Source: Enterobacteria phage P2-EC58. Taken from it: 1,988 nt of DNA. Under the pieces are notes generated by a model. The model saw nothing but the letters and a program-made list of their open reading frames with translations. It was not told the origin of the DNA and ran no database searches. Made by a program: the position numbers and the translations under genes. The stretch is taken from the sequence record AJ512683.1. One strand, given 5' to 3'. Numbering within the stretch: position 1 is the first letter of the stretch; each line of letters begins with the position of its first letter. Positions 1 through 1,988 of the stretch are shown here, piece by piece.

Positions 1-30
1 AATCCTGAATGGCCGGAAATGCCGAAATAA
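1..30 (+). CDS. G: 3' end of an upstream gene running off the left edge; probably the tail-fibre assembly chaperone of a P2-like phage (last 9 codons NPEWPEMPK plus TAA stop)
   Basis: In-frame codons aat cct gaa tgg ccg gaa atg ccg aaa end at TAA (28-30). The C-terminal peptide resembles what I recall of P2 gpG-type tail-fibre assembly proteins, and the position immediately upstream of the FI start matches P2 gene order (H-G-[Z/fun]-FI). Only 9 codons are visible, so the identification rests on recollection and synteny. Confidence 0.5.
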   Translation, partial: NPEWPEMPK

Positions 31-63
31 GTTGTATGAGCTCTGGTGTGAGCTGACATATCT

Positions 64-120
64 ATGGCACAGAGTAAAGCCTAATCTGACAGTCCGCTCT
101 GTGCCATGAGCGGACTGTCA
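64..120. terminator. Two overlapping, mutually exclusive inverted repeats between convergent genes: stem A 64-74/97-107 (11 bp, 22-nt loop) and stem B 87-99/108-120 (13 bp, 8-nt loop); possible bidirectional terminator or protein-binding palindrome
   Basis: Base pairing checked by hand: tggcacagag (65-74) is the reverse complement of ctctgtgcca (97-106), and gacagtccgctc (88-99) is the reverse complement of gagcggactgtc (108-119). Neither strand has a U-tract after the stems, so intrinsic-terminator function is uncertain. Confidence 0.35.
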
Positions 121-314
121 ATCAACAGATTTACGTGTAAATCTTGAAGCTATACATATTTACTTTCAATGATAAATAAAAGAACCACCCCAAAATCACT
201 GAAAGTATATTTTAACTAACCACCTGCAACTACTAACATTAATTTCACTCAACCTCAAAGAGTCGTAATTAAAATGATATGTGTAGCAATTTGCCTCGAT
301 ACGAATCATATGAA

Positions 315-1013
315 TTATATTTTTCCATGCTTTTCACCGTCAAATCGAATCATGCCAGGATCAAGAAAATAAATCAAATCAATTAACGCATGTTGTATTC
401 TGATTAGCCTTTCTTTATAAGGCTCGATATTTTTTGTCAAATTTATCACTTCATTGTTTAAATCTAAAAAAAATGGTTCATTGACAAAGCAATTTTCCTT
501 TGTGAAACCGCCGTAACCTATGCAATCAAATCCAGCATCTGTTGATATCAACATCTTTTCCGCAATAGCTCTCTGCTCTCCTATGAAAAACATAAAATAC
601 TGACCAAAGGCGTCTGTTTGGATTAATGAGTTAATATTGTTCTGTAATCTAATAAACTCCCTCATTTTTTTATTTTTTTCTAGACTAAGGTATTGAATGT
701 CTATGCGGGCGGCTTCTGTCCATGCAAAGAACTGGGAAAAAAGAAAAACCGTGTTTTTGATAACATAATCTTGTTGGCGCTTACTCCCATTATGATAAAA
801 CTCTTCAATAAACCCTAATTCTAATATGTTATAAATGCGGCTTTGTAAGTCTGAAGCTGAGCGAATTAACGGTTCAATATAGTACTGATGTTTTCTCCTT
901 ACATCCAGTGTTTCATTGAGCTTGTTTATTCTATTCTGATTATAGGTAGATATAGCAATAGAGATTATAGATATTGCACCACCAATAAGGCTTGAAATTA
1001 ATGCCACACTCAT
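315..1013 (-). CDS. Hypothetical membrane-anchored protein, 232 aa, with one N-terminal transmembrane helix and a soluble domain of unknown function; candidate anti-phage or phage-exclusion protein in the position of P2 Z/fun
   Basis: ORF of 232 codons in AT-rich DNA, where stop codons are frequent and long ORFs are unlikely by chance. ATG at 1013-1011 is preceded by AAGGA (complement of 1021-1025) with a 7-nt spacer. Residues 3-24 (VALISSLIGGAISIISIAISTY) are uniformly hydrophobic, followed by a basic stretch (NQNRINK...RRKH), which by the positive-inside rule suggests a cytoplasmic C-terminal domain. Stop is TAA at 317-315. Function is inferred from genomic context only. Confidence 0.85.
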   Translation of the reverse strand: MSVALISSLIGGAISIISIAISTYNQNRINKLNETLDVRRKHQYYIEPLIRSASDLQSRIYNILELGFIEEFYHNGSKRQQDYVIKNTVFLFSQFFAWTEAARIDIQYLSLEKNKKMREFIRLQNNINSLIQTDAFGQYFMFFIGEQRAIAEKMLISTDAGFDCIGYGGFTKENCFVNEPFFLDLNNEVINLTKNIEPYKERLIRIQHALIDLIYFLDPGMIRFDGEKHGKI

Positions 1014-1020
1014 CTAAAAG

Positions 1021-1025
1021 TCCTT
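1021..1025 (-). promoter_or_regulatory. Shine-Dalgarno sequence (AAGGA) for the 232-aa gene
   Basis: Minus-strand sequence reads aatcAAAGGActtttagATG; the spacer to the start codon is 7 nt. Confidence 0.7.
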
Positions 1026-1084
1026 TGATTTTCTTGGTTAACAAAATGACATGGTTTTATTTAATGTCGCAGCAACTTAATAAT

Positions 1085-1118
1085 ACACCATGATATGATT
1101 ATTATGGTGTGATTTTTC
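1085..1118. promoter_or_regulatory. AT-rich hairpin or palindrome (stem 1085-1095/1100-1110, 4-nt loop) followed by TTTTT on the + strand; lies about 70-100 nt upstream of the cargo gene start on the opposite strand; operator-like, or a weak + strand terminator
   Basis: acaccatgata / tattatggtgt pair over 11 positions, one of which (1092 g with 1103 t) is a G.U wobble in RNA and a mismatch in DNA; followed by gatttttcgc (1111-1120). Confidence 0.3.
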
Positions 1119-1466
1119 GCATCTGTAATCCATTACAAACAGATGCAAGGTATAACTTGTCTATTTTCAGTCAGAAAATTCGTAAACATCCAAAGTAGCC
1201 TCATCAAACTCTTAAAATTCTATACGTTTGAGTGTAAAGATTTTAAATCCAGCTGCGTGGTATCGACTCAACTTTATTATGTTTTTTATTTGTAATTAAA
1301 GGTTGCATTATTTTCGATAATAAATCATCACAAGATTGAAATATGGTTTCACTTGATGCAATGTTTCATGTGGTCCAGCGATTTGAGTTACACCCAGCTG
1401 TACGGGTAATATAAATCAAATTGATGAACTTTTGATGCACTCCTCTCTCTTCATTACTTTATGTTT

Positions 1467-1500
1467 TTGCTCTCAAAAATATCTTGCTCTCTGAAAATTA
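1467..1500. repeat. Imperfect tandem direct repeat, two copies of TTGCTCTC(TG)AAAAT(A), period about 16 bp, preceded by a polypyrimidine run (tcctctctcttc, 1441-1452)
   Basis: Copy 1 ttgctctcaaaaata at 1468-1481 and copy 2 ttgctctctgaaaatta at 1484-1500, read directly from the sequence. Confidence 0.4.
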
Positions 1501-1817
1501 TTCTTTAAGTTAAAAGTCGAGGACTGCATGAGTGTTAGATACAAAGCTAATATGTTGAAATGTTTTTCATCTCCCCATAACGGCATTATTATCTAAAACA
1601 TTTACACAAATATAGGATTACCCCTTTAACGTAAACTAGGAATCAAGTTAACACCATTATATATATCATAAACATGATATTTTGTATATTTTTATCATTT
1701 AGCCTTGATTGTACAGGGCGTACTCTCAACGAAGTAGGGAAAGTCTGTTTTTCGCTCAAAGCAGACTGTCAGATTTGATAGCGTTTTGGCTATGTAAATT
1801 GTCAGTCGGAAAATGAG

Positions 1818-1835
1818 TGTGTACAAATCAGGACA
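1818..1835 (+). promoter_or_regulatory. TGT-N12-ACA dyad (TGTgtacaaatcaggACA), matching the consensus activator site of P2 late promoters bound by Ogr-type zinc-finger activators; candidate element of the FI late promoter
   Basis: Exact TGT at 1818-1820 and ACA at 1833-1835 with a 12-nt spacer. It lies about 125-140 nt upstream of the FI start codon, but it overlaps the 5' arm of the terminator stem and no clear -10 element was found, so the assignment is tentative. Confidence 0.25.
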
Positions 1836-1862
1836 GGCGGGCAGATTGCCCGCCTTTTCTTT
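1835..1862 (+). terminator. Rho-independent terminator on the + strand: 8-bp GC-rich stem (aggcgggc / gcccgcct), 5-nt loop (agatt), then T-tract ttttcttt
   Basis: Pairs 1835-1842 with 1848-1855 verified by hand (7 G:C plus 1 A:T), immediately followed by a T-run through 1862. The minus-strand version lacks a good U-tract, so it is oriented for + strand transcripts. Confidence 0.7.
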
Positions 1863-1946
1863 ATCTGTTGTTTCATCCACTGACCAGCCAGGTCAAATAG
1901 CGTCTCATGTACTACCCAACGGAAAATAGTTGCACCCATTAACCAC

Positions 1947-1950
1947 GGAG
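1947..1950 (+). promoter_or_regulatory. Shine-Dalgarno sequence (GGAG) for the tail sheath gene
   Basis: ccacGGAGttaaacggATG; the spacer to the ATG at 1959 is 8 nt. Confidence 0.7.
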
Positions 1951-1958
1951 TTAAACGG

Positions 1959-1988
1959 ATGAGCGACTATCATCACGGCGTGCAGGTG
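1959..1988 (+). CDS. FI: 5' end of the contractile tail sheath protein gene of a P2-like phage (first 10 codons MSDYHHGVQV); continues off the right edge
   Basis: atg agc gac tat cat cac ggc gtg cag gtg translates to MSDYHHGVQV, which I recognise as the N-terminus of P2 gpFI; a good RBS sits upstream. GC content rises again here relative to the cargo. Confidence 0.8.
   Translation, partial: MSDYHHGVQV

Follow-up and report, generated by a model that had tools for sequence, protein, structure and literature searches.

A stand-alone distant relative of the reverse transcriptase-associated transmembrane protein of UG5-large systems in the Z/fun slot of prophage P2-EC58

Which function does a P2-like prophage gain from the cargo that lies between its tail fibre assembly gene G and its tail sheath gene FI? 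This question is raised by sequence record AJ512683.1 from Enterobacteria phage P2-EC58, a stretch of 1,988 nucleotides (nt) that was analysed at its full length and is referred to here as the window. Its sole long open reading frame (ORF), on the minus strand at 315-1013, starts with ATG and encodes a protein of 232 amino acids (aa). The initial annotation, made from the letters of the window, had proposed this gene as a candidate single-gene anti-phage system, and the gene is present exactly as described there. The most fitting description of the 232-aa protein is that of a distant, stand-alone relative of the reverse transcriptase (RT)-associated transmembrane (TM) protein of the UG5-large DRT systems, encoded beside a decayed gene in a mobile cassette of 1.7 kb. 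Uncharacterised genes are many in such hotspots, but this one has a specific and testable link to a component of RT-based immunity.

The possibility that the ORF is a chance feature can be excluded because an open run of 232 codons would arise by chance at about 1e-8 per start position (our own estimate, for about 31% GC and about 7.6% of random codons being stops), the ratio of nonsynonymous to synonymous substitution rates (dN/dS) is 0.12-0.25 against three diverged copies, which indicates purifying selection, and the protein belongs to a family of 1,867 representatives. This family was collected by a profile search, the representatives being taken at 50% identity; 410 of them have E ≤ 1e-30, and the family extends over many phyla. 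The protein is identical in sequence to UniProt Q858R8 (Q858R8_9CAUD), deposited as 'Putitive lysogenic protein'. The same misspelling is found in the Z-region record of P2-EC67, and we infer that the Q858R8 deposit comes from the same ECOR P2-prophage survey as that record (Mol Biol Evol 21:1-13, 2004); the NCBI name 'lysogenic protein' evidently propagates from it. Moreover, the protein matches phrog_5606 over its full length (residues 1-232 of 232, E 6e-149). An undescribed family had been one of the options considered at the outset: the sequence was already on record under these two entries, and what holds is that the PHROG family has no known function. In Pfam and NCBIfam no match of the 232-aa protein was found even at E ≤ 10, and a PDB sequence search returned nothing with either the protein or its profile.

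The evidence that carries the relationship comes from the defence profiles of PADLOC 2.0, where RTasTM (DRT) was the only match of the 232-aa protein (26 bits, E 1.4e-6, residues 69-205). RTasTM denotes the 1TM protein of the UG5-large type 'RT-nitrilase + 1TM', represented by system E101 of Escherichia coli and corresponding to Mestre cluster 1858 and to PADLOC PDLC03013/PDLC03799. The E101 RT + 1TM system was functional at room temperature only. The profile matches 43 of 43 aligned members of the window family, with a best E of 9.8e-11. Other PADLOC and Pfam profiles of single-gene or membrane effectors (SLATT, PD-T4/T7/lambda, the Rst_ series, PDC candidates) gave no match to the 232-aa protein. 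A direct comparison was made with the E101 1TM sequence, taken from Rousset et al. Table S2A, which is itself a member of the RTasTM family (541 and 406 bits over the full length, true members scoring 400-540 bits). Pairwise BLASTP aligned the two proteins with E 5e-4 and 23% identity over 143 residues. With hhalign, the window family profile matched the E101 protein at 96.9% (E 1.8e-10, 157 columns) and a 16-member RTasTM profile at 96.7% (E 4.3e-10, 129 columns). Also, the AlphaFold2 (AF2) models of the 232-aa protein and of the E101 protein, with pLDDT values of 85 and 84.9, present the same order of elements. Judged from these comparisons, the 232-aa protein is a remote RTasTM homologue, of a putative sister family rather than a member of the RTasTM subfamily. 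The earlier statement that its domain matches no defence family has to be withdrawn in view of the PADLOC match and of the hhalign match to the validated E101 protein. Mestre 2022, citing Rousset 2022, states that the E101 RT-nitrilase + 1TM (UG5-large) system needs its 1TM protein (cluster 1858) in order to defend (PMC9226505); related TM proteins accompany 33 of 175 UG1 and 31 of 299 UG5-large RTs (PMC9226505).

Regarding its architecture, the 232-aa protein is most likely a single-pass membrane protein of N-out/C-in topology with a cytoplasmic domain of about 210 aa. This prediction follows from the arrangement of one lone hydrophobic segment before a net-basic stretch: residues 3-24 are the sole strongly hydrophobic segment (the Kyte-Doolittle peak, 2.35, is that of the 19-residue window from residue 3), and residues 25-45 hold five K/R against two D/E. 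The N-terminal TM helix is found in 187 of the 192 family members having an intact N-terminus. In the AF2 model (pTM 0.79), a long TM-containing N-terminal helix, spanning residues 3-65, is followed by two long helices, a short helix, a beta-hairpin, another short helix and two C-terminal helices. The organisation put forward initially, with one N-terminal TM helix (about residues 3-24), a basic stretch and a probably cytoplasmic domain of about 210 aa, agrees with hydropathy, family and model. Several polar residues are invariant in the family alignment, being D55, Q57, S58, R59, N62, Q94, E100, R103, G145-E146-Q147-R148 and Y167. Because these are many and several of them align with conserved RTasTM residues, they suggest that the cytoplasmic domain has a specific site for binding or regulation and is not a purely structural bundle.

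Does this relative of an RT-associated protein also depend on an RT? A sample of 86 family loci from many phyla, with 149 immediate neighbours scored against PADLOC, was used to answer this. Neither an RT nor a conserved partner was seen in the 86 loci, and a Pfam check of ten adjacent ORFs identified no RT among them; a given neighbour family recurs in seven of the loci at most, the recurrent families falling in two groups of loci that share local synteny. This agrees with the single stand-alone gene proposed initially. In every locus inspected, the RTasTM gene, for its part, overlaps an RVT_1-type gene (about 960 aa) at the latter's 3' end, and the RTasTM subfamily comprises 29 clusters, all from Enterobacterales. 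The E. coli RT-nitrilase + 1TM locus is present in 33 of 5,426 complete genomes and in none of the four genomes that carry the P2-borne cassette. An RT acting from an adjacent position or in trans was rejected for the loci examined, on the grounds that no RT neighbour was seen and that the cognate locus is missing from these four genomes. Since the stand-alone family greatly exceeds the RT-linked subfamily in size and in taxonomic breadth, RT systems probably recruited a member of the stand-alone family, rather than the window gene being the leftover of an RT system.

A second possible partner is suggested by the region upstream of the 232-aa gene. In these 730 nt, which occur only together with the gene, the longest ORF has at most 61 aa, and a search of the whole window against Rfam found nothing. 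A noncoding or regulatory RNA was considered for this region and rejected in favour of a pseudogene: the divergence of 19%, against a dS of 0.16 in the coding sequence, corresponds to an approximately synonymous and thus nearly neutral rate, the indels are not multiples of three, the region is missing from more distant copies (for example, loci L013 and L014), and frame-shifted remnants of a protein are found in it. The pseudogene, at about 1171-1572, is co-directional with the 232-aa gene and contains at least three in-frame stops and several frame changes. Its counterpart in locus L010 consists of two small ORFs that, joined across one frameshift, give a protein of 150 aa. Intact homologues in a single frame, encoded on plasmids of Pseudoalteromonas (WP_208844580.1) and Methylobacter, validate this reconstruction with 57-58% identity at 97-98% coverage. 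The pseudogene family has the motif FDLG...ILVECK[AS]H.WT.GG.VPSAK and looks PD-(D/E)XK-like. As no Pfam, NCBIfam or PDB match was found for this family and the PADLOC REase hit is marginal, the tentative assignment as a nuclease is made by motif only. The description of the 232-aa gene as the only convincing one in the cargo stands in that no other intact gene is present; the rest of the cargo, with a minus-strand pseudogene in it, is not plain spacer.

These observations bear on the idea that the 232-aa protein is an orphaned or trans-acting part, in need of an RT-nitrilase encoded elsewhere or of the lost product of the upstream gene, and now inert or tolerated. The closest characterised relative does work with an RT-nitrilase, and each of the three related E. 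coli cassettes has a decayed upstream gene. Nonetheless, purifying selection persists on the 232-aa gene while its upstream neighbour decays at an approximately neutral rate, and the four cassette genomes are devoid of the cognate RT locus. The upstream gene was also rejected as a conserved partner: the two genes stand side by side in none of 80 species-level loci, and on the Pseudoalteromonas plasmid the downstream neighbour of the intact upstream-gene homologue is unrelated to the 1TM family. The balance between 1,867 stand-alone representatives and 29 RT-linked clusters argues in the same direction, and an orphaned part is thus considered very improbable.

The location of the gene is the second line of evidence. 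The slot is the P2 Z/fun locus, as initially proposed, given the junction sequences common to the window, P2 and P2-EC67. The identity of the flanking genes had been set beforehand as a test of this assignment, and both are orthologues of the P2 genes G and FI (74% and 98% identity, respectively); in an E. coli chromosome that is 99.8% identical, they are annotated inside a complete P2-type tail module. The cargo between the tail fibre assembly and tail sheath genes is AT-rich, as had been noted, with a GC content of 27-37% compared with 40-45% at the edges of the window. In P2 itself the slot between G and FI is occupied by fun(Z), of 528 aa on the minus strand, whose traits are a block to the growth of T5 and sensitivity to FUdR. 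A homologue of Fun(Z) had been one of the options for the 232-aa protein and was rejected: the best BLASTP match to Fun(Z) (NP_046777, 528 aa) has E 3.2 over 12 residues, and the two proteins are unrelated. The notion of a defence hotspot of P2-like phages agrees with Vassallo et al. 2022, who reported the fun locus as the second defence-enriched locus of these phages, with three validated systems in it (PMC9519451).

The gene is not restricted to P2. The segment 49-1762, which takes in the 232-aa gene with its flanks and part of each P2 junction, has a counterpart of 87% identity in 409 complete E. coli genomes, some of them from strains labelled ST131. In the one copy examined (locus L008, about 6001-7713), it lies within a lambdoid prophage, between genes of the ImmA/IrrE and LprI families. 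The P2-borne version of the cassette is found in only four complete E. coli genomes. Given this recurrence in a lambdoid prophage and in four P2-bearing genomes, the cassette moves as a unit between prophage types. Altogether, the gene is accessory in E. coli, being present in 413 of 5,426 genomes. Another cassette copy (L010), whose protein is 83% identical, lies in an AlpA/DUF4238 island, and a further relative of the gene is found in a P2 remnant adjoining DUF2971. A tblastn search of 50,697 phage records with the 232-aa protein gave no match, the original Z-region deposit being evidently absent from that collection. As a separate observation, in some genomes (NZ_AP022044.1, NZ_CP051661.1) an IS1 element lies inside the span of the cassette match.

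A defence role of the gene is plausible because it occupies a hotspot slot, is carried by two prophage types and by islands, is accessory, is homologous to a required component of E101 and has some defence neighbours; the neighbourhood evidence as a whole is mixed. It is reasonable to regard it as a candidate defence gene, and we judge an anti-phage phenotype of the prophage copy in E. coli to be somewhat probable. More specifically, the 232-aa protein could be a single-gene membrane effector of the abortive-infection type, a serious possibility that we put forward tentatively. According to this proposal, the moron gene in the Z/fun slot of P2 would be expressed from the prophage as an autonomous protein anchored in the inner membrane, the single N-terminal TM helix of the protein tethering the cytoplasmic helical domain of about 210 aa that bears the invariant polar residues. 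A phage-derived cue would then lead this domain to release or re-arrange the long N-terminal helix, and oligomers would perturb the membrane, so that phage growth stops. The stand-alone protein would hence defend, sense phage by itself and damage the membrane.

A different use of the same slot would be superinfection exclusion or lysogenic conversion, in which an inner-membrane protein blocks DNA entry or an early membrane step and the host survives. This explanation fits a prophage moron in the slot where P2 fun(Z) blocks T5, a small single-pass inner-membrane protein, the original deposit name of a putative lysogenic (conversion) protein, and the presence of the gene in two unrelated prophage types. 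However, the prediction places nearly the whole protein in the cytoplasm, and because only two residues precede the TM helix, little would be available for periplasmic contact with an incoming phage. Besides, family members are common outside prophages and occur in phyla whose envelopes differ greatly, and the homologue is a component of a cytoplasmic RT-based system. Superinfection exclusion therefore appears improbable.

Several results weigh against the abortive-infection proposal. For the protein no report, and for its family no experimental evidence, was found in the literature (full text, accession and keyword searches, and the searchable supplements of key papers). Fold searches gave generic helical-bundle matches, none of them confident. 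For example, against the ClyA-family toxins (ClyA, NheA, AhlB, PaxB) Foldseek gave E ≥ 0.16 and TM scores of about 0.24, and FliD, talin rods and designed bundles score alike. Pore formation, proposed by comparison with other TM effectors, finds structural backing only in this weak similarity to the ClyA family, and stays hypothetical because the Foldseek scores are non-significant and the predicted hairpin is not hydrophobic. Moreover, other UG1/UG5 (DRT1) systems defend without any TM protein (PMC13436386, PMC13275509), and a standard promoter scan of the window identified no convincing conserved sigma-70 promoter for the 232-aa gene. The neighbourhoods indicate a modest association with defence, strong PADLOC matches being limited to about 12 of the 149 immediate neighbours. 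Numerous homologues are surrounded by housekeeping genes (ALAD, YchF, LysR, aminotransferase/hydroxylase), the synteny being shared at the level of lineages. Seven loci from metagenome-assembled genomes (L049, L050, L055, L058, L060, L064 and L066; labels Blastocatellia, Acidobacteria or 'Heliomicrobium') have a carboxyltransferase gene on one side of the homologue and a biotin-carboxylase gene on the other, and in three of these loci only 3-34 nt separate the homologue from the gene downstream. Such an arrangement resembles a housekeeping operon and is difficult to reconcile with a role in defence.

Such neighbourhoods raise the possibility of a non-defence role in the membrane, for instance in envelope or metabolic stress, the gene being an occasional passenger of mobile elements and the prophage copy having no phage phenotype. 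To the seven carboxylase loci are added seven of Acidobacteriaceae in which the homologue is near ALAD, and locus L013, where it stands between aminotransferase and hydroxylase genes; only about one in ten immediate neighbours is defence-like. Against this, the carriers of the gene in Enterobacterales are consistently prophages or islands, its slot is a recognised site of defence genes, a validated defence system requires a homologue of its product, and it is accessory in E. coli. We consider a non-defence role rather unlikely. Defence-type neighbours of some homologues include SIR2-HerA, PIN, DUF4238, DUF2971, JukB, HsdR, Mokosh-like, nSTAND1-CHASE2 and CHAT-NACHT-TPR, the Mokosh-like hits probably stemming from a helicase-REase neighbour. 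In Citrobacter freundii (L016, 4776-5660), JukB (PADLOC E 8e-137) is the gene that directly precedes a 58%-identical homologue. Fusion proteins within the family were uninformative, with sub-threshold NAL1_N hits and one GerE hit.

If the defence role is true, a minimal one-gene membrane system would be added to the fun-locus hotspot of P2, and a widespread one, as the same cassette occurs in 409 complete E. coli genomes. The stand-alone gene also offers an easy genetic entry point to the TM proteins that accompany RTs in UG5-large and possibly DRT1 systems, proteins that are required in some systems only. The stand-alone form is the common and broad state and the RT-linked form probably a narrow offshoot, which changes the view of which one counts as the ancestral module. 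An extension of this idea would make the 232-aa protein the founding example of a large, phylum-spanning group of autonomous single-gene membrane immune effectors, combining sensing with killing or arrest, one member of which was captured by an RT-nitrilase (UG5/UG1) as its output module. This extension is doubtful at present; if it were true, the stand-alone protein would reveal the role of the so far unexplained TM component of DRT1/UG5. If, on the other hand, the gene has no part in defence, it would be an uncharacterised conserved membrane protein hitch-hiking in hotspots, and a caution against equating hotspot location with defence.

The coordinates of the features of the window are collected in Table 1. 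The cargo proper extends over about 107-1743, because the left junction ends at about 106 and the right one begins at about 1744. The left junction corresponds to the 'left inverted repeat' of the P2-EC67 Z-region record (AJ512685), and the likeness to other P2-type cargos stops at about 106. Both junctions, at 83-119 and 1739-1775, form an imperfect inverted repeat of 37 nt with 76% complementarity. The hairpin at 87-120 is not a typical terminator, since it has no T-run, whereas the terminator scan detected a strong rho-independent terminator at 1835-1864. The segment 64-120 contains two overlapping and mutually exclusive perfect hairpins, one of 11 bp in the conserved P2 junction (64-74/97-107) and one of 13 bp (87-99/108-120), which could be relevant to cassette exchange at the Z/fun slot. 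Beside the junction, at window positions 25-30, the tail fibre assembly gene ends in EMPK and a stop, against EIP and two stops in the 99.8%-identical RefSeq genome (L001, 6025-6030).

Upstream of the 232-aa gene, the part at 1656-1747 is 93-97% identical between the P2 and lambdoid copies, compared with 75-85% elsewhere upstream, and may represent the promoter/operator region of an ancestral two-gene unit. The sole candidate promoter here, a weak one obtained with a relaxed scan, is TACAAA-19-TATAAT, reading from 1686 to 1656. The hairpin at 1084-1117 is located 70 nt upstream of the start codon and, read on the antisense strand, resembles a terminator. In the lambdoid copy, four substitutions keep the pairing on the plus strand only, through G-U pairs, and the T-run is lost; as a conserved element the hairpin (1084-1111) was rejected, one comparison supporting it and L010 not conserving it. 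At the 3' end of the gene, a sigma-70 promoter-like sequence, TTGACG-18-TATAAT (11 of 12 positions, 343-314, minus strand), reads outward to G in antisense; its -10 element in the lambdoid copy is TATAAC.

Table 1. Features of the 1,988-nt window, with positions, strand and the basis of each assignment
Feature	Position	Strand	Basis
3' end of P2 G-type tail fibre assembly gene with stop (NPEWPEMPK, stop)	1..30	+	Translation; RefSeq annotation of the 99.8%-identical locus; 74% identity to P2 G
Left junction of the Z/fun slot	49..106	.	Alignment; common to P2, P2-EC67 and the lambdoid cassette copy
Perfect 13-bp hairpin (TGACAGTCCGCTC / GAGCGGACTGTCA)	87..120	.	Repeat search and alignment; second arm specific to this cargo
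AT-rich cargo cassette	107..1743	.	Alignments; GC 0.27-0.37; larger 49-1762 recurs as a unit
Gene of the 232-aa single-pass membrane protein	315..1013	-	ORF call, profile searches, AF2 model
Codons of the predicted N-terminal TM helix (residues 3-24)	942..1007	-	Hydropathy; 187/192 family members; model helix 3-65
Shine-Dalgarno sequence AAGGA, 7 nt 5' of the ATG	1021..1025	-	Read from sequence
12-bp hairpin followed by ATTTTT, between pseudogene and 232-aa gene	1084..1117	+	Terminator scan
Pseudogene, remnant of a gene for a protein of ~150 aa	~1171..1572	-	Three-frame translations, tblastn of the reconstructed protein, intact plasmid homologues
Best-conserved upstream part, candidate promoter/operator region	1656..1747	-	Sliding-window identity
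Conserved P2 backbone right of the slot: right junction/inverted repeat arm 1739-1775, terminator 1835-1864, FI upstream region	1744..1958	+	Alignment with P2 and P2-EC67
Start of tail sheath gene FI (MSDYHHGVQV)	1959..1988	+	98% identity to P2 FI

Finally, the 232-aa protein can be compared with four known systems. With Fun(Z) of P2 it shares the slot between G and FI, the minus strand and the condition of AT-rich, non-essential prophage cargo, although Fun(Z) is a protein of 528 aa and the two are unrelated. In contrast to the ClyA-family alpha-pore-forming toxins, to which it has no sequence similarity, the hairpin of the window protein (ISTDAGFDCIGY) is not hydrophobic. Drt1b, a small TM protein found beside about 18% of the DRT type 1 (UG1) genes, is likewise tied to RT-nitrilase defence and has been speculated by others to be a gated channel like HalA of Hailong (PMC13275509); a marginal PADLOC hit to Drt1b (E 0.005) was obtained for one of 43 members of the window family only.

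The closest comparison is with RTasTM. Both families have members of similar size (232 versus 229 aa) with one N-terminal TM helix running into a long helix, the same predicted helix order with a small beta-hairpin, and remote homology over about 130-160 columns. The motifs aligned by hhalign, given for the window family and RTasTM, respectively, are ...SR and ...GR, followed by Y..NT.F..AQ.F.W....R and Y..ST.FY..QY..W....R, together with EQ..IGE and C.(G/S)Y..F. The identity between them is nevertheless about 20-23%, and whereas RTasTM genes overlap the RT(-nitrilase) gene, the window family is without an RT neighbour in the loci examined. Moreover, RTasTM is a small family confined to Enterobacterales, whereas the window family is broad and has invariant motifs of its own, DLQSR.YN and GEQRAIGE. 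Like RTasTM, the 232-aa protein is carried on phage-related mobile elements of E. coli.

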